NCBI GenBank assembly: GCA_964416175.1
Contig: CAYQDF010000006.1
Location: 526-64,525 of the forward strand
Source: an uncultured Anaerolineaceae bacterium
Lineage (GTDB): Bacteria; Chloroflexota; Anaerolineae; Anaerolineales; UBA4823
Reading direction: 5' to 3'
DNA length: 64,000 bases
Under the pieces are notes generated by a model. It did no database searches. It worked only from the letters and a program-made list of their open reading frames with translations, and was not told where the DNA came from. Below are positions 38,129 to 47,652 of this stretch, piece by piece. A program made the position numbers and the translations under genes. Within the stretch, counting starts at the first letter, position 1. Every line of letters begins with the position of its first letter.

Positions 38129-40744
38129 ATGATCCCCCTTTACCTGAGCCTCTCGGGTTTCCTCTCCTACCGGGAACGGGCCGAGATCGATTTTTCAGAC
38201 TTCGATCTGGCCTGCATTGCCGGCTCAAACGGTGCGGGGAAATCCTCCCTGCTGGATGGGATCACCTGGGCCCTGTTCGGCCAGGCGCGCAAGCGGGACG
38301 ACTCGCTGATCAACGCCCACTCCAAAGCAGCGGAGGTGTGCCTGATCTTCGCCTACGAGGGAAACGTCTACCGGGTGCTGCGGTCCAAGCCGCGTGATAA
38401 ACCGGCAGTGCTGGAATTCCACATCCTCCAGGACCAAGGACCACCGACCGATGACGATGGCAATTGGTCGCCGGTCGTCTGGCTTTCGTCTACCGCCACC
38501 TGGAAACCCCTGACCGAGCGCACTTTGCGGGACACGGAAGCCCGAATCCAGGAGACCCTGCGCCTGGATTATGATACCTTCATCAACGCGTCGTTTTTCC
38601 TCCAGGGAAAGGCCGACCAGTTCACCCAGCAGCGCCCGGGCGACCGCAAACGGATTTTAGCCAGCATCCTTGGCCTTGAGATCTGGGAGCGCTACCGACA
38701 GCAGGCTGCTGATCGACGAAGAGGCATCGAGCTGGAGATCCAGGCGCTGGATGGGCGACTGCACGAGATCGCCGCCGAGCTCGAGGAGGAGGGGACGCGG
38801 CTGAAACGCCTTAATGATTTGGAAGGGGAGCTGGAAGTCCTGTCCCAGGCGCGGGCAAACCAGGAGGCTGCTCTGGTCGAGATCCGCCGGGCTGCTGCCA
38901 CCCTGGAGGAGCAAGGCCGACTGGTGGCTGTCCTCGCCCGCCAGCTCGAAGATGGCGAACAGCGGCTGAGTCAGCTGGTGAGCCGGCATGCGGAGCGAGA
39001 AGAGGAGCGCCGCGCGTTTGCCAGCCGGCTGGAACGGGCGGCTGAGATCGAATCTGCGCACGCTTCCTGGCTGGAGGTCAGGGCGCGCCTCGAAGAGTGG
39101 GAGGAGATTGCCGCCCGCTTCCGAGAGAACGAGAAGCGCCGGCAGGGGCCGCTGGACGAGATCAACGCGGCCCAGGCGCGGCTGGAACAAGAACTCCAGA
39201 TGCTGGCAGCGCGCCAGGCCGAAATCGAGAGCCTGAAGTCCGAAGCCCTTCAGGTGGAGGTCGAACTTGCTGCGGCTGAAGGTCTGGCGAAAGACGCCGA
39301 GCACCGCCTGGCTCGCCGGGCGCGCCTGGATGAAGAGCTCCAGCTCGCCCTGGAACGCCAGGCAGAAGCGAAGGCGGAAAATCCGCGCCTCAAAGCTGAG
39401 ATGGATGAACTGAAGATCCGGATCGACCAGCTGCAGGAAGTCGAAGGCGCGACCTGCCCTCTGTGCGGACAGCCGCTCAACCCTGCCGACCGGCAGGCGC
39501 TGATCGAAGCGTTGAATGCGAAAGGCAGGGAAATGGGGGACCGCTTCCGTGCCAACAAGGCGCTTCTTGAGCAGGAGGGCGAGCAGGTTCGCGAACTTCA
39601 GGCCCAGATCGCGGACCTCGCCCAATCGGAAGAGGAGCTGCGAGCACAGCAGGCGTTGATCGCCCGCTATGCCAGCCGACTCGATTCGATACGATCACAG
39701 TGCCAGGAATGGGAAGCGAGCCTGGCGCCGCGCCTGGCAGAGATCCATGCTGAGCTGAAAAGCGGGACGTTTGCAGCGGAAGCCCGGTCACGCCTGGCGC
39801 AAATCGATGCGGAGCTGCTTGAGATCGGCTACGATGCAGCCGCCCATGACGCAGACCGTCGCCTGGAAGCGGAAATCCGATCCAGCGTAGAGGAGATGAA
39901 CCTCCTGGAGAAAGCGCGGGCGGCCCTCGAACCCCTGGCGCGCGAGATCGCCGACCTGCACGGCCAGATCGAAGCACTCCGCGTGGAGCTCGAACGCCAG
40001 AGGGAAGAGTATACCAGCGCTGCCGCAAACCTGGCTGCTTCCCAGGCGGAAGCCCCCGACCTAGATGCTGCGGAGCGCCAGCTTCTGGATCTGAAGGAGA
40101 ACGAAAATCGCCTCCGGGTCGAAGTGGGCGCCGCCCGTCAGAAAGTCCTCGTCCTGAATGACCTTAAATTACGCCGCCAGGCATTGGGGCTCGAGCGAGA
40201 GGCACTCGCCAACCGAGTCGCTCAATTCAGGCAGCTGGAGCGTGCCTTCAGCAAGGATGGCGTTCCCGCCCTGCTGATCGAGCAGGCTTTGCCGCAGATC
40301 GAAACCCGGGCAAACGAGGTCCTGGACCGCCTGAGCAACGGGGGGATGTCCGTGCGCTTCGTGACTCAGGCGGCGTACAAGGACAAGCGCCGCGACGACC
40401 TGCGGGAGACCCTGGATATCCAGATCAGCGACAGCGCCGGGACGCGGGATTACGAGATGTTCAGTGGAGGGGAAGCCTTCCGGGTCAACTTCGCCATCCG
40501 CCTGGCGCTGGCGGAGGTGTTGGCCCAGCGCGCTGGCGCGCGCCTCCAAACCCTGGTGATCGACGAAGGCTTTGGCAGCCAGGACGCGGAAGGCCGTCAG
40601 CGGTTGATCGAAGCCATCAATCTGGTGCGGGTGGACTTCTCCAAGATCCTGGTGATCACTCACATCGACGAATTGAAAGACGCCTTCCCAAACAGGATCG
40701 AAGTGGAAAAGACGGCGCGTGGTTCGCTCGTCAGAGTGGTCTGA
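38129..40744 (+). CDS. sbcC: SbcC/Rad50-like SMC-family ATPase with zinc hook
   Basis: 871 aa. Walker A GSNGAGKSS, long coiled coil, CPLCGQPL hook, signature FSGGEAF, Walker B LVIDEGFGSQD. No SbcD-like gene is adjacent. Confidence 0.8.
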   Translation: MIPLYLSLSGFLSYRERAEIDFSDFDLACIAGSNGAGKSSLLDGITWALFGQARKRDDSLINAHSKAAEVCLIFAYEGNVYRVLRSKPRDKPAVLEFHILQDQGPPTDDDGNWSPVVWLSSTATWKPLTERTLRDTEARIQETLRLDYDTFINASFFLQGKADQFTQQRPGDRKRILASILGLEIWERYRQQAADRRRGIELEIQALDGRLHEIAAELEEEGTRLKRLNDLEGELEVLSQARANQEAALVEIRRAAATLEEQGRLVAVLARQLEDGEQRLSQLVSRHAEREEERRAFASRLERAAEIESAHASWLEVRARLEEWEEIAARFRENEKRRQGPLDEINAAQARLEQELQMLAARQAEIESLKSEALQVEVELAAAEGLAKDAEHRLARRARLDEELQLALERQAEAKAENPRLKAEMDELKIRIDQLQEVEGATCPLCGQPLNPADRQALIEALNAKGREMGDRFRANKALLEQEGEQVRELQAQIADLAQSEEELRAQQALIARYASRLDSIRSQCQEWEASLAPRLAEIHAELKSGTFAAEARSRLAQIDAELLEIGYDAAAHDADRRLEAEIRSSVEEMNLLEKARAALEPLAREIADLHGQIEALRVELERQREEYTSAAANLAASQAEAPDLDAAERQLLDLKENENRLRVEVGAARQKVLVLNDLKLRRQALGLEREALANRVAQFRQLERAFSKDGVPALLIEQALPQIETRANEVLDRLSNGGMSVRFVTQAAYKDKRRDDLRETLDIQISDSAGTRDYEMFSGGEAFRVNFAIRLALAEVLAQRAGARLQTLVIDEGFGSQDAEGRQRLIEAINLVRVDFSKILVITHIDELKDAFPNRIEVEKTARGSLVRVV

Positions 40745-40805
40745 GAATTTGATCTCTGGGAACATGGGGTAAAAAAGCATTTCAGAGGAGAATTATCTTA
40801 ATTTC

Positions 40806-40834
40806 TTGACCAGCCCTGCGGGTGGTGATAGAAT
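40806..40834 (+). promoter_or_regulatory. Sigma-70 promoter of the phhA leader (TTGACC-N17-TAGAAT)
   Basis: Good hexamers with a 17-nt spacer, about 30 nt upstream of the leader-peptide ATG. Confidence 0.55.
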
Positions 40835-40862
40835 TTGGTTTGCCAACCCCAAGGTGCCTCAT

Positions 40863-40964
40863 ATGTCAGGCCGTTTTTACACTTCACCCGCCTATTATTA
40901 CGCCTATACATACCGCCGGTCGGCGGTGTGCGCGCGTGGGCCGATCTGGAGGCGCCTGGTTTAG
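40863..40964 (+). CDS. Tyr-rich leader peptide (33 codons): MSGRFYTSPAYYYAYTYRRSAVCARGPIWRRLV
   Basis: AAGGTG SD 6 nt upstream of the ATG. Six Tyr and one Phe within codons 5-17. Lies between the promoter and the terminator upstream of phhA. Confidence 0.55.
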   Translation: MSGRFYTSPAYYYAYTYRRSAVCARGPIWRRLV

Positions 40965-40996
40965 AGTACTCAATCTAAGTCTAACGGATTAATTGA

Positions 40997-41033
40997 AGCC
41001 ACAGGTCCTCCCCGACCCCGTGGCTTTTTTTTT
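40997..41033 (+). terminator. Intrinsic terminator (attenuator) immediately upstream of phhA
   Basis: AGCCACAGG...CCCCGTGGCT hairpin followed by T9. The phhA SD AGGAGG (41052-41057) and ATG 41063 follow directly. Confidence 0.8.
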
Positions 41034-41062
41034 ATTTCCGGTCCCTGTTTCAGGAGGTTTTA

Positions 41063-41746
41063 ATGGAATTCACGAGCGAACAGCACAAGATCTGGCAGAC
41101 GCTGTACAGGCGCCAGCTGCCGCGCGTGGAAAAATACGCGTGCCGGGAATACCTGGAAGGGTTTGATATTCTGGAGCTCCCCGCAGACCAGATACCAGGG
41201 CTCGATTTCCTGAATGGGCGAATCACCCCGCGTACCGGCTGGAGCACGGTGCGGACGAAGATCCGCTATTCCGACGCCGTGCAGTGGTACCGGCACTTCG
41301 CCTGCCGGGAGTTCCTGGTCACGGACTACCTGCGCGATTGGGGGGAACTGGACTTCACCCCTGAGCCGGACATGTTCCACGACATCTTCGGGCACCTGCC
41401 CTTCATGGTGCTGCCGGCATACACGGAGCTGCAAGATCTGTTCGCGCCGGCTTTCCACCGGGCGAATCCGGAGCAAAGGGAGAACATCAAGCGGCTGGCC
41501 TGGTTCAGCACGGAGTTTGGGCTGATCCGGGAGGCTGGGGAAGTGAAGATCTTCGGCGCCGGGCTGATCTCCTCCTCGGGTGAAATGGAGCACGTGCTGG
41601 CAGGCAACGTGCCGCTGCTGCCCTTCAAAGTGGAGACCATCATCAATTACGACAAGGCGATCTGGAGCTACAACCAACAGCTGTTCGTCTTCGATTCGCT
41701 GGCGGATCTCAAAGACGAGCTGCAGTGGTATTTTGATTCGTTATAG
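41063..41746 (+). CDS. phhA: Phenylalanine-4-hydroxylase (biopterin-dependent aromatic amino acid hydroxylase)
   Basis: 227 aa. Iron-binding EPDMFHDIFGHLP (H-x4-H) and WFSTEFGL Glu motif. Confidence 0.85.
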   Translation: MEFTSEQHKIWQTLYRRQLPRVEKYACREYLEGFDILELPADQIPGLDFLNGRITPRTGWSTVRTKIRYSDAVQWYRHFACREFLVTDYLRDWGELDFTPEPDMFHDIFGHLPFMVLPAYTELQDLFAPAFHRANPEQRENIKRLAWFSTEFGLIREAGEVKIFGAGLISSSGEMEHVLAGNVPLLPFKVETIINYDKAIWSYNQQLFVFDSLADLKDELQWYFDSL

Positions 41747-41821
41747 AGGTCACATTTAATGTGATTTGGTATCTGCGCAAATCCTCCAATCTTCTTTACC
41801 GGAAAGCGTGGCTGTCTGGGA

Positions 41822-41851
41822 TTGCCAGATCAGGGATGTATATGATATAAA
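41822..41851 (+). promoter_or_regulatory. Candidate nrfHA promoter (TTGCCA-N18-TATAAA)
   Basis: Hexamers read by eye, about 60 nt upstream of the nrfH ATG. Confidence 0.3.
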
Positions 41852-41909
41852 TTTCGCAGCTGTGTGACATATACCCCAAACTCAACCCCACCTTTGGCGT
41901 GAGTACGAG

Positions 41910-42386
41910 ATGAGATTCGTCCTGTTCACTGGCATCGCTGCACTGCTGCTCGTCGTCGGCCTGGGAATGTATGTCACCGATTTCACGGCCTACCTGGGCA
42001 ATAACCCCACCACCTGCAACAACTGCCACGTGATGGACGCCGTTTACGAAGGCTGGTTCCACGGCGGTCACAAGCAGTGGGCTGTCTGCGCAGACTGCCA
42101 TACCCCTCACCCCCTGATCCCTAAATACTACGTAAAAGCGCTTTCCGGCTACCATCACGTCACCGCCTTTGTTTTCGGAAAGATCCCGGATGCGATCCGG
42201 GCCAAGGAGTCGTCGCGCCGGGTGGTCCAGGAGAACTGCATCCGCTGCCACGCGGAGACGATTGCGGAGACAAACGAAGGACTGATGGACTCGGACCGCT
42301 ATTGTTTCGAGTGCCACCGCAGCGTGGCGCACGGAGAGCGCGGTATCTCTCTGCTGCCATACCAACACAAGGAGGAAGGCCAATGA
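41910..42386 (+). CDS. nrfH: Tetraheme cytochrome c NrfH (NapC/NirT family)
   Basis: 158 aa. N-terminal TM helix. Four CxxCH motifs (CNNCH, CADCH, CIRCH, CFECH). Confidence 0.9.
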   Translation: MRFVLFTGIAALLLVVGLGMYVTDFTAYLGNNPTTCNNCHVMDAVYEGWFHGGHKQWAVCADCHTPHPLIPKYYVKALSGYHHVTAFVFGKIPDAIRAKESSRRVVQENCIRCHAETIAETNEGLMDSDRYCFECHRSVAHGERGISLLPYQHKEEGQ

Positions 42387-43687
42387 GAATCTCCAAGACG
42401 GGTGCTGTCCTGGCTGGCGTCATTGTCCTGTTAACCGCGGCTGTGATCGGCTTGCTTATATACATCAACAACCAGCCTCCGCCCATGCGCGGCATTGCGC
42501 CTCTCGTGGAGATCGCCGAGATGGAGCCCGATTCGTCCAGGTGGGGTGTCAATTTCCCCAACCAGTACTCCACACTTTTGCTGACAGAAATGAACAATGA
42601 GCGGACGGCTTACGGCGGCTCCAACCCCTTCTCCAGGCTGGAGAACAACCCGCGCCTGCTGACCTTGTTCGCTGGCTACAGTTTTTCGAAGGATTACAAC
42701 GAAGAGCGCGGCCACCTGAACAGCCTCACAGATGTTCGCGCCACGGGCAGGGTGAATGAGACCACTCCCGGCACCTGTTATTCGTGCAAGACGGCTGCGA
42801 ACCCGCAGCTGTGGAGCGAGATGGGCATGGCGGAATATGACAAGACCCCTTTCAGCGAGCTGGGAAAGCTTATCGAACACCCCATCGGCTGCGCCAATTG
42901 CCACGAAGCCAACACCATGCGCCTGATCGTGACCAACCCTGCACTGGAGGAGGCGCTGGAGGTGCAGGGCAGGGACTGGCGGACGTTCACCCGCCAAGAG
43001 ATGCGCACTGTGGTTTGCGCCAATTGCCATGTCGAATACTATTTCGCTGGAGAGGGGAAATACCTGACCTTCCCATGGGCAGGTGGGACGGACATCGAGT
43101 CGATCTCCGCTTACTACGCCGATCTGCAGTTCAAGGACTGGGACCACCCGCAATCAGGCGCGCCCATGATCAAGATGCAGCACCCCGAGTACGAGATCTT
43201 TACCGCCAACAGCACCCACTATAACGCTGGAGTGGCCTGCGCTGACTGCCATATGCCCTACACCCGCGACGGAGCAGCCAAGTTCTCGACCCACAATGTG
43301 AAAAGCCCGCTCCTGAACGCGGAAACCGCCTGCGGCGCCTGCCACACCGACGTGGCGTACGTCACCAGCCGGGTATCCATCATCCAGAACCAGGTGAGCG
43401 AGAGGATGGGCGCGGCCGAGGAAGCTATTGTGGCGGCGATCAAGGCGATCGAGGCGGCGGCAGCATCGCCGGGGGCAGACGCCACCCTGCTGGAGGAGGC
43501 CCGCCAGCTGCACCGGGAAGCCCAGCTGCGGTGGGACTTCATCTCTGCCGAGAACAGCATGGGTTTCCACAATCCGGAAGAAGCCCTGCGCATTCTTGCA
43601 TCAGCCACGGACCTGGCGCGCCAGGCGCAGCTCAAGGCGGTCCTGGCTGGGGGCGGCTTAGTAGGGGGCGAGACCAGCGGAAATTGA
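42383..43687 (+). CDS. nrfA: Pentaheme cytochrome c nitrite reductase NrfA (ammonia-forming)
   Basis: Start moved to ATG 42383 (ATGA overlap with nrfH). Active-site CxxCK (CYSCK) plus four CxxCH (CANCH x2, CADCH, CGACH). Confidence 0.9.
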   Translation: MRISKTGAVLAGVIVLLTAAVIGLLIYINNQPPPMRGIAPLVEIAEMEPDSSRWGVNFPNQYSTLLLTEMNNERTAYGGSNPFSRLENNPRLLTLFAGYSFSKDYNEERGHLNSLTDVRATGRVNETTPGTCYSCKTAANPQLWSEMGMAEYDKTPFSELGKLIEHPIGCANCHEANTMRLIVTNPALEEALEVQGRDWRTFTRQEMRTVVCANCHVEYYFAGEGKYLTFPWAGGTDIESISAYYADLQFKDWDHPQSGAPMIKMQHPEYEIFTANSTHYNAGVACADCHMPYTRDGAAKFSTHNVKSPLLNAETACGACHTDVAYVTSRVSIIQNQVSERMGAAEEAIVAAIKAIEAAAASPGADATLLEEARQLHREAQLRWDFISAENSMGFHNPEEALRILASATDLARQAQLKAVLAGGGLVGGETSGN

Positions 43688-43808: not shown

Positions 43809-44639
43809 ATGCTGGAAAATATCGACCTCTCCCTGAAGCTCGGGAAGAAAGAATACAGGCGGTTAAAACCGGAGCTGCAGAACCACCTCTACGCCGTGCA
43901 GAAAGCGTCCTGGGATGCCGGCATCCCGGTGATCATCCTCTTCGAGGGCTGGGATGCAGCCGGGAAGGGAACGGCGATCCAGCACCTGACCACCAGGCTT
44001 GATCCGCGCGGTTTCAAACTTTATCCCATCCGAGCAGCGCGCACGTACGAGAAAAAGCGCCCCTGGCTGTGGCGATTCTGGCTCAAGATCCCCGGCCGGG
44101 GCGAGTGGGCGATCTTCGACCGCTCGTGGTACGGCCGGACGCTGGTGGAACGCGTGGAAAATCTGATCCCGGAATCCGAATGGCGGACGGCTTACCGGGA
44201 CATCGTCGACTTCGAGGGCACCCTGGCCGATGACGGTTATCTGATCATCAAGCTGTTCTTGCATATCAGCCGCCAGGAGCAGAAGCGGCGGTTTGAGAAA
44301 TTGTCCCGGGATCCCCTGAACGCCTGGCACGTCGAGCCCGAAGACTGGGAGCACCATCGCCATTACAGGGAATGGCTGTTGGCTTACGAAGAGACTTTCG
44401 AACGCACCGAGGCAGAGTGGGCACCCTGGACGATCGTGGAAGCCACCGATCAACGCTATTCCCTGATCAAGGTCTACCGGACGATCATCGGCGCGCTGGA
44501 GGAGAGGCTTTCTGCGGCAGGCGCTTCCCCCGACCCGGCTTTGTGGCTGAAAAGTGCGGCGGGCGAGGGCGAGGAAAGCCGCGTCGAAGAAGTTATCCAA
44601 GAGGAGCCCGTCGGGTTGCCGGCCTCCCAGTTAAAATAA
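43809..44639 (+). CDS. ppk2: Polyphosphate kinase 2 family protein (single domain)
   Basis: 276 aa. Walker A-like FEGWDAAGKG, FDRSWYGR lid motif. Confidence 0.85.
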   Translation: MLENIDLSLKLGKKEYRRLKPELQNHLYAVQKASWDAGIPVIILFEGWDAAGKGTAIQHLTTRLDPRGFKLYPIRAARTYEKKRPWLWRFWLKIPGRGEWAIFDRSWYGRTLVERVENLIPESEWRTAYRDIVDFEGTLADDGYLIIKLFLHISRQEQKRRFEKLSRDPLNAWHVEPEDWEHHRHYREWLLAYEETFERTEAEWAPWTIVEATDQRYSLIKVYRTIIGALEERLSAAGASPDPALWLKSAAGEGEESRVEEVIQEEPVGLPASQLK

Positions 44640-44685
44640 CAACCAGCACACGCTTCCGCTTATTGCAGGCAAGAAGATTGCGCAC

Positions 44686-45492
44686 ATGCTCAAGACAGTC
44701 GATCTGACATCCGCATTAGAAAAAGAAGAATATCTCCATTCTTTGGTGAAGTACCAGGTTGCTCTGCACAGCCTGGGATATCAGGTCTATGTCCAGCAGC
44801 GCCCGGTGGTGATGGTCTTCGAGGGGTGGGACGCAGCCGGGAAAGGGGGAGCCATCAAACGCGTCACCGAGAAGCTTGACCCGCGCGGCTACGTGGTCTA
44901 TTCGATCGCCACCCCCCAGGGTGAGGACGCAGTCCGCCATTACCTCTATCGATTCTGGAGGAGGCTGCCCGAATCCGGGCAGATCGCCATCTTCGACCGC
45001 AGCTGGTACGGCCGCGTCCTGGTCGAGCGCATCGAGGGGTTCTGCACCGAAGAGGCCTGGAAGCGCGCCTACCGGGAGATCAACCAGTTCGAGCGGCAGC
45101 TGGTCGATTTCGGCACCATCCTGTTCAAGTTCTGGATGCAGATCAGCTCCGATGAACAGCTGCGGCGCTTCGAAGCCCGCGCCGGGGATGTCCTGCGCAG
45201 CTGGAAACTCACCGAAGAGGACTGGCGCAATCGGGAGAAGTGGGACCAGTACGAAGAAGCGGTCAACGACATGCTGCTCAAGACCAGTACGGTGACGGCT
45301 CCATGGACGATCGTCGCGGCCAACAACAAGTGGTACGCGCGCGTGAAAGTGCTCAAAACGCTTGTCGACAGGCTGAGCCAGGAGCTACAGTACGACCCCT
45401 TTGCCGATAGCGTTGACCGGGCAGGCAAGAAAGGCAGCTCTGCTGGTTCGAAGAAGAGGAAAAAGAAGGAAAAGTCCACCGCTTTGGGTTAG
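44686..45492 (+). CDS. ppk2: Polyphosphate kinase 2 family protein (second paralog) with Lys-rich tail
   Basis: 268 aa. FEGWDAAGKG, FDRSWYGR. C-terminal KKGSSAGSKKRKKKEK. Confidence 0.85.
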   Translation: MLKTVDLTSALEKEEYLHSLVKYQVALHSLGYQVYVQQRPVVMVFEGWDAAGKGGAIKRVTEKLDPRGYVVYSIATPQGEDAVRHYLYRFWRRLPESGQIAIFDRSWYGRVLVERIEGFCTEEAWKRAYREINQFERQLVDFGTILFKFWMQISSDEQLRRFEARAGDVLRSWKLTEEDWRNREKWDQYEEAVNDMLLKTSTVTAPWTIVAANNKWYARVKVLKTLVDRLSQELQYDPFADSVDRAGKKGSSAGSKKRKKKEKSTALG

Positions 45493-45510
45493 GCGGCGGA
45501 GGGAAATAGG

Positions 45511-47652
45511 ATGACAGCACAGCTCAAAGAATCGAAGGAGGGAGTCGAAGCCAGGATCGACCTGGACGACCCAAAACTGTACATCAACCGCGAGCTCAGC
45601 ATGCTGGAATTCCAGCGGCGAGTGCTGGAGGAAGCCCAGGACGTGGACAACCCCCTGCTGGAACGGGTCAAGTTCTTGGCTTTCCTGGGCATCAACCTGG
45701 ACGAGTTTTTCATGGTGCGCGTTGCCGGGTTAAAGAAGCAGGTCGCGGCCGGCGTGGTCGACCTGCCGCCGGATGGGATGACGCCAGCCGAGCAGGTTGC
45801 TGCGATCCGCAAGCTGGCCCTGGAGATCATGGTCGCCGGGCAGGAATGCCTGACGAAAGACCTGCTGCCTCGGCTCGACAAAGCCGGTATTCACGTCCTG
45901 GATTACGCCCAGCTCAACGATAAGCAGAGGGAAAGCGTCGACAGCTATTTCGACGAAGTGGTCTTCCCGGTGCTGACTCCAATGGCCTTCGACCCCGGAC
46001 ATCCTTTCCCCCACATCTCCAACCAGAGCCTGAACCTGGCGGTGCTCATCCGCGACAAGACCGACCACTTCGCCCGGATAAAAGTGCCCGGCACCCTGCC
46101 GCGCCTGGTGCCGATCAAGCGCTCATCGGGGAGCGTGCGGCGGGACGGCACGGTGCCCCACCACCATTACTTCGTCTGGCTGGAACAGGTCATCGCCGCT
46201 AACCTTCCCGACCTCTTCCCCGGGATGAAGATCGTAGAATCCCACCCCTTTCGGATAACACGCGACGCCGACGTGATGATTCAAGAACTGGAAGCCTCCG
46301 ACCTCCTCGAAAGCATCGAACAGGGCGTGCGCAAACGCCGCTTCGGGTCGGTCGTGCGCCTGGAAGTAAATCCCCAAATGCCAAATCACGTCCGGAATAT
46401 CCTGATTCAGAACCTGGAGATGGATCGCAACGACGTCTATACCCTGGAAGGTCCTCTTGGCTCGAGTAACTTGATGGGTCTCTACCAGATCGATCGCTAC
46501 GATCTCAAGGATGTGCCTTTCGTCCCCGCGATCCCATCCGAGCTCAAGGGGGAGACATTCGACGGCAATATCTTCGCCGCCATCCGGAAGGGTGACATCC
46601 TGCTCCACCATCCCTACGATTCGTTCACCCCGGTGGTGGATTTCCTGCACCTGGCCGCCAGGGATCCGGACGTGCTGGCGATCAAGCAGACCCTGTACCG
46701 GGTCGGCCGCAACTCGCCGGTCGTCAAGGCCTTGATGGAAGCCCGGGAGAACGGCAAGCAGGTGGCCGTTTTGGTGGAGCTGAAGGCCCGCTTCGACGAG
46801 GAGAGCAACATCGGCTGGGCTCGGGCGCTGGAGCGGGAGGGCGTGCATGTCATTTACGGCCTGCTCGGATTGAAAACCCACTCCAAGATCGCCCTGGTCG
46901 TGCGCAAAGAAGGGGAGAGCATCCGGCGGTATGTGCACCTGGCGACGGGAAACTACAACTCGGTCACCGCGCTGTCTTACGAGGACATCGGCCTGTTCAC
47001 CTGCGACGAGCAGATCGGGGCGGACGCCACCGATCTGTTCAACTACCTGACCGGCTATTCGAACAAGCAAGATTACCGCAACCTGCTCGTCGCCCCCGTC
47101 AACTTACGGGAAAGAATGGTGGCGTTGATCGAGCGTGAGGCTGATCTGCAGGGAAAAGGGGAGCAGGGGCATTTGATATTCAAAATAAACTCGCTGGTGG
47201 ACAAAGGCATCATCAAAGCCCTGTACCAGGCCTCGATGGCTGGGGTCAAGATCGACCTGATCGTGCGCGGCATGTGCTGCTTGCGGCCAGGATTGCAGGG
47301 GATCAGCGAGAACATACGCGTGGTGAGCGTGGTCGGGCGCTTCCTGGAGCACAGCCGGATATATTATTTCCGCAACGGCGGAAAAGAGGAAATCTACCTG
47401 GGCAGCGCGGACCTGATGCCGCGCAACATCAACAGCCGGGTGGAAGTGCTTTTCCCGGTCGAGGACCAAGGTCTGATCCGCTACCTGCGCGACGACGTGC
47501 TGGCCGAGCACCTGGCAGACAATGTTAAAGCGCGCGCCATGAGGCCGGATGGAACGTTCAGAAAACCGACCCGGGCGCCGGAGGATGCGCCGCGCAACGT
47601 CCAGGTGCGCCTGATCGAGAAGCGCCTGGCGAAGCGCGGCCTCCCATCCTGA
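45511..47652 (+). CDS. ppk: Polyphosphate kinase 1
   Basis: 713 aa. LYINRELSMLEFQRRVLEEA N-terminus, autophosphorylated His region (LKTHSKIALV), two PLD-like HKD domains. Confidence 0.95.
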   Translation: MTAQLKESKEGVEARIDLDDPKLYINRELSMLEFQRRVLEEAQDVDNPLLERVKFLAFLGINLDEFFMVRVAGLKKQVAAGVVDLPPDGMTPAEQVAAIRKLALEIMVAGQECLTKDLLPRLDKAGIHVLDYAQLNDKQRESVDSYFDEVVFPVLTPMAFDPGHPFPHISNQSLNLAVLIRDKTDHFARIKVPGTLPRLVPIKRSSGSVRRDGTVPHHHYFVWLEQVIAANLPDLFPGMKIVESHPFRITRDADVMIQELEASDLLESIEQGVRKRRFGSVVRLEVNPQMPNHVRNILIQNLEMDRNDVYTLEGPLGSSNLMGLYQIDRYDLKDVPFVPAIPSELKGETFDGNIFAAIRKGDILLHHPYDSFTPVVDFLHLAARDPDVLAIKQTLYRVGRNSPVVKALMEARENGKQVAVLVELKARFDEESNIGWARALEREGVHVIYGLLGLKTHSKIALVVRKEGESIRRYVHLATGNYNSVTALSYEDIGLFTCDEQIGADATDLFNYLTGYSNKQDYRNLLVAPVNLRERMVALIEREADLQGKGEQGHLIFKINSLVDKGIIKALYQASMAGVKIDLIVRGMCCLRPGLQGISENIRVVSVVGRFLEHSRIYYFRNGGKEEIYLGSADLMPRNINSRVEVLFPVEDQGLIRYLRDDVLAEHLADNVKARAMRPDGTFRKPTRAPEDAPRNVQVRLIEKRLAKRGLPS

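Follow-up and report, generated by a model that had tools for sequence, protein, structure and literature searches.

We investigated a short tyrosine-rich leader that precedes phhA, a gene for a pterin-dependent aromatic amino acid hydroxylase, in a 64,000-nucleotide (nt) stretch of DNA from an uncultured Anaerolineaceae bacterium (contig CAYQDF010000006.1; this whole stretch is referred to as the window). The gap between the upstream gene sbcC (38129-40744, Pfam SbcC/Rad50 domains) and phhA (41063-41746, plus strand) measures 318 nt and contains a promoter, a Shine-Dalgarno (SD) sequence, an upstream open reading frame (uORF), a hairpin and a terminator, all on the plus strand. A sequence-only reading of the window had proposed these parts, including a Tyr-rich uORF of 33 codons, a hairpin of 9 bp and a terminator ending in U9, and the sequence, its translation and its fold bore out the position of each. 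The sigma-70-type promoter (40806-40834) is composed of TTGACC (-35), a 17-nt spacer with a TG at 40826-40827, and TAGAAT (-10). With 10/12 matches plus the TG extension it was the sole plus-strand promoter-like site in a promoter scan of positions 40000-42500, and we infer a transcription start near 40841. Sequence inspection and a listing of SD-like motifs placed the leader SD, AAGGTG, at 40851-40856, 6 nt 5' of the ATG at 40863. The uORF spans 40863-40964, comprising 33 codons and a stop codon at 40962-40964, and its exact translation is MSGRFYTSPAYYYAYTYRRSAVCARGPIWRRLV. Six Tyr codons fall within codons 6 to 17 (starting at 40878, 40893, 40896, 40899, 40905 and 40911) and a Phe codon starts at 40875. 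The presumed regulatory run, TAT TAT TAC GCC TAT ACA TAC, lies at 40893-40913 and encodes Y11-Y13, Y15 and Y17.

The last Tyr codon starts the 5' arm of the 9-bp hairpin, termed P1 (CAUACCGCC-GGUC-GGCGGUGUG, 40909-40930), which is part of the minimum free energy (MFE) fold and might function as an insulator or in pausing RNA polymerase. Downstream of the uORF, an intrinsic terminator occupies 40996-41033. Its stem (40996-41026, GAAGCCAC(A)GGUC / GACC(CC)GUGGCUU) contains an internal loop, encloses the loop CUCCCC and is followed by U9 (T9 in the DNA, 41025-41033), which ends 19 nt before the phhA SD (AGGAGG, 41052-41057). A simple terminator scanner overlooked this element solely because its loop was longer than 8 nt. 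The leader RNA (40841-41040) is highly structured overall, with an MFE of -72 kcal/mol and z = -3.9 against dinucleotide shuffles. The leader also stands alone in the window: TAYTAYTAY occurs once on both strands of the 64 kb against 0.10 occurrences expected, and among stop-to-stop open reading frames (ORFs) of at most 90 aa in all frames it is the only one with at least 3 Tyr in 5 residues. Tyr codon choice showed no significant bias, with 3 TAT and 3 TAC in the leader compared with 143 TAT and 308 TAC in the long ORFs of the window. A small hairpin, UUUAGA/UCUAAG at 40960-40979, additionally takes in the leader stop codon.

The downstream gene encodes a protein of 227 aa (ATG at 41063) that matches Pfam Biopterin_H (8.5e-38) and the Chromobacterium violaceum phenylalanine hydroxylase structure (PDB 1LTU, 3.1e-38). 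His106, His111 and Glu151 are invariant in an alignment of 22 PhhA homologues, and the named homologues are from Chloroflexi or Anaerolineales. PhhA is a phenylalanine hydroxylase (PAH)-like enzyme. Fitness data show that PAH is required for tyrosine-free growth in Dyella japonica and is partly redundant with prephenate dehydrogenase in the Bacteroidota member Echinicola vietnamensis, and a similar Tyr-biosynthetic role has been reported for Legionella (PMC7311316). Since PAH serves Tyr biosynthesis in these three organisms, induction of phhA under Tyr limitation would be logical.

For comparison, 160 homologous loci were taken from a genome and a metagenome collection, and a few more were added by exact-protein look-up. 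The closest locus, L161, encodes a PhhA 91% identical to that of the window in the syntenic order sbcC, leader, phhA, nrfHA, and its leader had been called as a 33-aa gene (MSDRFYASPAYYYAYTFRRSAGRAREMAWRRLV). Two other close relatives, L162 and L164, encode the leader peptides MFNRQPASVYYSRYTHRRSAVIPIRRRLV and MNPGKPSFSPGYYYAYTSRRSAECWVYPVGRRLA. The window, L161, L162 and L164 have in common the promoter, a YY(Y)xY core, the CCGCCGGUCGGCGG hairpin and the terminator, together with a GGAGGCG(C/U)CUGG block directly 5' of the stop codon. Both promoter hexamers and the CAGGAGG at the phhA SD are kept in L161 and L162. Unlike the YY(Y)xY core, Y17 varies among L161, L162 and L164, where it is replaced by F, H or S. 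The P1 core CCGCCGGUCGGCGG is identical across the four relatives and retained in their consensus fold, and the GGAGGC block is nearly invariant among 12 Anaerolineae-type leaders. RNAalifold analysis of the four close relatives supported P1 as well as the terminator, at whose base AU pairs are replaced by GC pairs in a compensatory manner. The hairpin singled out by the sequence-only reading is therefore conserved, but it is not the classical region 1:2 partner of the antiterminator described below. Two smaller features were seen in the same comparison. A spacer motif, UAACG (around 40982-40986), is conserved in L161 and L162 as well as in the window. In L162 (377-500) and L163 (130-260), the terminator and the phhA SD are separated by an insertion of about 95 nt that is not found in the window or L161; it is built from a duplicated GC-rich unit (…GCGGGCCTTGTGCCCGC…) and could represent a small repeat element.

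At more distant loci the leader RNA could not be aligned, and yet the same plan recurred: a Tyr-rich uORF, then a hairpin with a T-run, then phhA. Examples are found in Acidimicrobiia (L010, MQVSYYAYFIYRLPGARYGAMLM; L012, VQKRNVAYAYYRPGVRCREVSR), Acidobacteriota (L015, MHTLRNHHRFYYYSLPQWPARRDPTD), Gemmatimonadota (L026, MLHTQMCATAAYYYRDHDLAAAGGASP), other Chloroflexota (L005, MAFQNGSHAYVYYYAESDLAVLSCPE) and Bacteroidota (L063, MNSNNSTYYYYTDPDRAAA; L068, MNKMNTTYYYYYLMNPIGMVNCCS; L069, MMINNNNTYYYYPIPLGSA; L079, MKLTNRAYYYYYIGCSGGRVG). We counted this architecture using a strict detector. It looked for 3 or more Tyr codons within a stretch of 5, with an in-frame start at most 20 codons upstream and a stop 8-30 codons past the first Tyr; a T-run had to follow 30-80 nt past the stop, directly adjoining a hairpin with an energy of -8 kcal/mol or lower. 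The detector found 25 of 149 loci upstream of phhA on the sense strand, none of 149 on the antisense strand and none in equal-sized control regions. When Tyr was exchanged for another regulatory residue, counts dropped to 2 for F and N, 1 for H, K and M, and 0 for D, C, Q, E and W. A looser detector yielded 26 sense and 4 antisense hits. Four further members (L004, L007, L102 and L164) lie beyond the strict detector as they have a weaker U-run or too little upstream sequence. Positive loci cover Chloroflexota, Acidimicrobiia, Acidobacteriota (L015), Gemmatimonadota and Bacteroidota; no Tyr-run leader was found at the proteobacterial loci L073, L075 and L080. A single short ORF at one locus could have been an untranslated stretch with Tyr codons that happens to lie beside an ordinary terminator. 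Given that the leader is unique in the window and that the architecture was found at 25/149 loci against 0/149 in antisense and 0 control regions, the counts effectively refute such a coincidence, and we assign it a negligible probability.

Two other loci deserve mention. In Algoriphagus marinus (L059, approximately 2740-2900), a short ORF (MNPTPRTFVHHSHYRLQ) upstream of phhA is followed by a terminator (AAAGGCCUA...UAGGCCUUUUU); this ORF is His-rich without a Tyr run and could represent a leader that has degenerated or is tuned differently. In L027 (380-589) and L155 (51-260), a more distant PhhA paralogue is preceded by a conserved ORF of about 69 aa (MF(M/I)QGQGGNGRYRYYW...) which passed a loose Tyr filter. 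It was rejected as an attenuator, being longer and protein-like and having no terminator architecture.

Between groups the leader RNA sequences are unrelated and only the Tyr codons, their frame and the geometry are common to all. TAT and TAC swap freely across homologous leaders. The distance from the first Tyr of the run to the stop codon is 10-27 codons in the Tyr frame compared with 1-286 in the other two frames, and in-frame starts lie 4-18 codons 5' of the Tyr run in all homologues. These frame-specific constraints on start and stop, together with the interchange of TAT and TAC, argue for translation over an RNA motif. Downstream, the T-run follows the stop codon by 44-64 nt in 23 loci and by 71 nt in L009, and the terminator hairpins of the homologues range from -10.8 to -28 kcal/mol. 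In many homologous leaders the uORF ATG, which has no SD, lies 3-12 nt 3' of a -10-like box (TATAAT, TATATT or TATAGG), as in L005 (2775-2797), L032 (2838-2865), L063 (318-337), L069 (2818-2839), L079 (2806-2824) and, 5' of the ATG, L092 and L094. Judging from this spacing, these uORFs may be translated from leaderless or near-leaderless mRNA.

The alternative in which the ORF is incidental and a translation-independent RNA element, such as a riboswitch, a T-box-like tRNA-Tyr sensor or a binding site for a TRAP-like protein recognizing UAY repeats, acts on the same terminator can be weighed against these data. It would account for the strong structure of the leader (z = -3.9), for the P1 core and GGAGGC block being identical at every position in close relatives, which points to constraint at the RNA level, and for the homologous uORFs that have no SD; moreover, the known Tyr-sensing RNAs are T-boxes with Tyr specifiers (PMC1262725). 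However, a search of Rfam 15 returned no leader, riboswitch or T-box (RF00230) match in 40600-41300 at E <= 10, with only sub-threshold chance hits to unrelated families, and no T-box or leader family at gathering score in 16 homologous loci, where tRNAs were the only matches besides chance hits. None of the amino-acid leader families (Trp_leader, Phe_leader, His_leader, Leu_leader, Thr_leader and others) matched the window or the 16 loci. The Chloroflexota, Acidimicrobiia and Bacteroidota versions share only in-frame Tyr codons and a terminator, start and stop positions are constrained in the Tyr frame only with TAT and TAC interchanging, and the antiterminator strand always adjoins the stop codon. 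We consequently regard such an element as improbable.

The Tyr-rich peptide might instead be functional itself, either as a small protein or as the precursor of a ribosomally synthesized and post-translationally modified peptide whose aromatic residues are modified by the neighbouring hydroxylase. Its being encoded next to an aromatic hydroxylase, and having been called as a gene in L161, would fit this idea. The peptides, however, have nothing in common but the Tyr run and range in length from 14 aa (L009) to about 41 aa, and no family was matched at E <= 10 by 8 leader peptides searched against NCBIfam or by 5 searched against Pfam. A strong terminator separates peptide and enzyme, there are no adjacent maturation or export genes, and residues past the Tyr run follow RNA pairing, as illustrated by RRSA, which corresponds to the CCGCCGGUCGGCGG hairpin. 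A role for the peptide as such is very improbable.

A ribosome-mediated attenuator further calls for an antiterminator that competes with the terminator. We folded the RNA of 25 loci, starting just past a ribosome halted at the last Tyr codon and ending at the terminator loop. In this pre-terminator fold, the terminator 5' arm paired with a segment in or beside the uORF 3' end in 24 of the 25 loci, for example ACGGUACGGG with CCCGUACCG in L010 and AUUGGAAUGG with CCGUUCCAGU in L068. The partner segments range from about 40 nt 5' of the stop codon to the stop codon itself, which is overrun by 6-15 nt in the window and L097. From this position, a ribosome at the stop codon would cover the partner segment while a Tyr-stalled ribosome would not. 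Duplex energies exceeded those of dinucleotide shuffles (mean z = -1.25), with p < 0.05 in 7 of 25 loci. In a swap test of 23 loci, uORF 3' segments paired with their cognate terminator arms about 4 kcal/mol better than the row and column means predicted; an equally good result did not arise in 20,000 permutations (p <= 5e-5), and the cognate arm ranked first to third of 23 in 15 loci. As judged from these sequence comparisons, uORF 3' ends co-vary with their own terminators across lineages, which is the signature of a co-evolving antiterminator. A column-wise covariation test on a 12-sequence MAFFT alignment failed, as subgroups use different registers and segments. The antiterminator 5' strand, referred to as region 2, pairs over or just past the Tyr run in 10 of 19 folded homologues, as in a classical 1:2 arrangement, with L012 and L076 being mixed. 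For the window and L161 the partner of region 2 is the upstream ribosome-binding site (RBS) and not the Tyr-run segment, and most of these RBS helix pairs are retained in L161 via G-U changes.

The window's own region 2 (40929-40961, core GGAGGCGCCUGGUU at 40948-40961) was delineated in folds with a masked ribosome and forms the 3' end of the leader ORF, immediately 5' of the stop codon. Once the 5' part was opened in such a fold, GGAGG-C-GCCU-GGUU (40948-40961) paired with AGCC-AC-AGGU-CCUCC (40997-41012); GGAGGCGCCUGG is predicted to partner 40997-41012. With P1 intact the helix lengthens, GC.CGCG.GGG.CG (40929-40942) pairing with CG.CCCCGUGGC (41012-41024), and both terminator arms are sequestered. 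In untranslated RNA, the MFE pairs hold the antiterminator strand in a long-range helix between 40849-40872 and 40939-40959. The 5' strand of this helix contains the leader RBS and start codon and, based on the folding model, might serve as an anti-antiterminator, an assignment that is uncertain. The sequence-only reading had called for a mutually exclusive antiterminator to be sought by folding; the masked-ribosome folds and the swap test indicate that one exists, in a form other than that envisaged. The proposed duplex of CGUGGGCC (40935-40942) with AGCCACAG amounts to about 4 contiguous pairs and appeared in no optimal or constrained fold, and the CGUGGGCC segment is changed in L161 (GUGAGAUG) and deleted in L162. 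Instead of imitating the terminator 3' arm as supposed, 40929-40940 is predicted to bind to it (CCCCGUGGC) when the helix is extended. Of a second suggested helix, involving the terminator loop and 3' arm, the GGAGG:CCUCC contact recurs in the predicted antiterminator while the remainder is formed by GCCUGGUU with the terminator 5' arm AGCC..AGGU and not with the 3' arm. We also considered pairing of the P1 loop GGUCGG with CCGACC in the terminator loop as an antiterminator. This possibility was rejected; although L161 retains the pairing, L162 has only 5 bp of it and L164 none.

Ensemble folding was used to estimate the probability of the terminator stem, P(terminator stem), in different translation states. 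The value was 0.999 for the untranslated leader and 0.998-0.999 with a ribosome at the stop codon (40947-40977 masked). With RNA free from 40906-40912, corresponding to an A site on the YYY run, it fell to 0.14-0.47, and with RNA free from 40929 to 0.06. When a stalled ribosome was combined with masking of the RBS region, P(terminator stem) was 0.14-0.63.

A further explanation would leave the uORF to work through mRNA stability, Rho access or phhA translation initiation and regard the hairpin and U-run as a constitutive partial terminator or as an insulator from sbcC. The borderline thermodynamics of the window antiterminator would be compatible with this, and the terminator, being 280 nt past the sbcC stop codon, could also end read-through transcripts from sbcC. 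A promoter, however, sits between sbcC and the leader, and the uORF-terminator unit recurs in unrelated genomic contexts. A constitutive terminator would give no reason to expect co-variation between uORF 3' ends and terminator 5' arms. The phhA SD, 19 nt past the U-run, is unsequestered in every predicted fold. This route therefore appears distinctly improbable.

Based on the computed parts, their conservation, the cross-phylum specificity for Tyr and the co-variation of uORF 3' ends with terminators, we consider it likely that a Tyr-codon, ribosome-mediated leader-peptide attenuator governs read-through into phhA. This is the mechanism that the sequence-only reading had put forward, and its uORF, Tyr run and terminator are kept upstream of phhA orthologues in several phyla. 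The leader and terminator are most likely an uncatalogued switch for Tyr synthesis from Phe at low levels of charged tRNA-Tyr. The proposed sequence of events relies on inference for ribosome stalling and footprints, for the kinetic sequence in which the RNA folds, for the transcription start site and for the physiology of the response. In it, transcription would begin near 40841 and the 33-codon leader would be translated. With plentiful Tyr-tRNA the ribosome would reach the stop codon at 40962-40964, its footprint covering GGAGGCGCCUGGUU (40948-40961); the terminator (40996-41026 plus U9) could then form and transcription would end upstream of phhA. With scarce Tyr-tRNA the ribosome would stall on the YYY/Y/Y codons at 40893-40913 and leave 40929-40961 free to sequester 40997-41012, in the terminator 5' arm and loop, with a possible extension to 41024. 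Terminator formation would thereby be blocked, RNA polymerase would enter phhA, and the gene product would turn Phe into Tyr. If the leader were not translated at all, the RBS region would pair with 40939-40959 and the terminator would form.

Several findings weigh against this attenuator. P(terminator stem) returned to 0.85-1.0 with RNA free from 40918, 40925 or 40937, and it was 0.999 with one stalled ribosome if the RBS strand 40849-40872 remained free. Because a free RBS strand restores both the long helix and the terminator, antitermination would be possible only with the RBS occupied by a second ribosome or through steric exclusion or kinetic trapping. The four-sequence RNAalifold consensus gave no support to this long RBS:region-2 helix. 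The antiterminator duplex of the window is modest compared with shuffles (z = -1.5, p = 0.07), and the window's cognate terminator ranked only 8th of 23 in the swap test. The folding models thus predict a mutually exclusive antiterminator that we consider genuine, in a switch that is thermodynamically borderline. Several homologous uORFs have no recognizable SD. The leader is also absent near close PhhA relatives, namely L001 (74% identity), whose 5' region is short and AT-rich, and L165-L167 (76%), which have a plain promoter; the leader must therefore be dispensable. Finally, PhhA scored 215 bits on NCBIfam NF008877 (phenylalanine 4-monooxygenase equivalog), under the 247-bit cut-off, and its substrate specificity is assigned by homology.

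Leader-peptide attenuation is textbook knowledge for Trp, His, Phe, Leu, Thr and Ile/Val. The mechanism proposed for the phhA leader is that of the trpL, pheL and hisL attenuators. The enterobacterial trpL-trpEDCBA, pheL-pheA and pheM-pheST systems (PMC11802643; PMC3082878) likewise have a promoter-proximal ORF with a codon run for the sensed amino acid, a terminator 5' arm that alternatively pairs with the 3' end of the leader ORF, and a controlled gene that makes or charges the sensed amino acid. The phhA leader differs from them in its regulatory codons, which are for Tyr and not Trp or Phe, with no sequence or Rfam relationship to trpL, pheL or pheM. Its target is a pterin-dependent hydroxylase and not a shikimate-pathway enzyme or a synthetase, and in the window the antiterminator is sequestered by the RBS of the leader and not by the regulatory-codon segment. 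Corynebacterium glutamicum aroR, located before aroF, is also a leader with a Tyr codon that controls an aromatic-pathway gene by ribosome stalling; in the account that PMC11802643 gives of Neshat et al. 2014, however, it carries Phe-Tyr-Phe, responds to Phe and is reportedly not affected by Tyr, whereas the run described here is essentially Tyr-only with 3-5 Tyr. Computational uORF and terminator motifs with codons matching gene function have been described as well, such as uORFC-8-2 (Cys/cysS) and uORFC-13-1 (Phe/aroF; the Acholeplasma aroF uORF motif carries Phe codons), but they differ in amino acid, gene and taxa, and none concerns Tyr or phhA (PMC8632094).

Charging of tRNA-Tyr is also sensed by T-boxes with a UAC specifier, which control a terminator in the 5' leader of Bacillus subtilis tyrS and Tyr-pathway genes (PMC1262725). 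In contrast to the phhA leader, they bind uncharged tRNA directly and need no translation, and the conserved T-box sequence was not found here. A survey of Actinobacteria, which noted that Tyr is under T-box control elsewhere, detected no RNA structure conserved in front of Tyr genes (PMC1262725). In Proteobacteria, the same enzyme gene is regulated by the sigma-54 activators PhhR/TyrR and by divergent Lrp/AsnC genes (PMC1173090; PMC3223726). These regulators switch phhA on for catabolism in response to abundant Phe or Tyr, while an attenuator would induce it when Tyr is scarce. This opposite logic would imply an anabolic role for PhhA. The sequence-only reading had known of no described Tyr-codon leader for phhA, and searches of Rfam, Pfam and NCBIfam agree with it; a full-text literature search likewise found no Tyr leader or phhA attenuator, but subscription literature was not covered and a prior prediction is possible.

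At least two unrelated leader architectures can be distinguished. Chloroflexota-type leaders start about 10 codons before the Tyr run and have GC-rich RNA, and Bacteroidota-type leaders start about 7 codons before a YYYY(Y) run, which suggests repeated invention or transfer along with the gene. We incline, with confidence just above even, to the broader view that Tyr-codon leaders are a widespread uncatalogued class of phhA attenuators found in at least 5 phyla and at least 2 unrelated architectures, and that they mark PAH as a biosynthetic route induced by Tyr starvation, not a catabolic step, in many uncultured lineages. If true, a Tyr-specific leader would add tyrosine to the list of amino acids sensed by leader peptides and provide a ready in vivo sensor of Tyr-tRNA charging. 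Used as a regulatory annotation, a leader before phhA would predict switch-on by Tyr shortage and hence a role in Tyr synthesis, with consequences for predicting auxotrophy in uncultured Chloroflexota, Acidimicrobiia, Gemmatimonadota and Bacteroidota. It would broaden the genetic case made for a biosynthetic PAH in Dyella, Legionella and Echinicola (PMC7311316), and the element should readily lend itself to a new Rfam or uORF motif entry.

With respect to the surroundings of phhA, the loci L165, L166 and L167 (628-3726), which lack the Tyr leader, carry the gene divergently oriented beside genes for a short-chain reductase, FolB, HPPK and GTP cyclohydrolase I. Such a neighbourhood appears to be devoted to the pterin cofactor, suggesting that the enzyme is regulated in another way there. 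In the window, an nrfH-nrfA pair encoding a NapC/NirT-type tetrahaem cytochrome and a cytochrome c552 nitrite reductase follows 3' of phhA at 41910-43687, and the adjacency of phhA and nrfHA is kept in L161 and L164. PAH is an O2-dependent enzyme, and Nrf is typically an anaerobic or microaerobic respiratory enzyme. Further downstream lies a polyphosphate cluster (43809-47652) in which tandem PPK2 genes (43809-44639 and 44686-45492) are followed by PPK1 (45511-47652).

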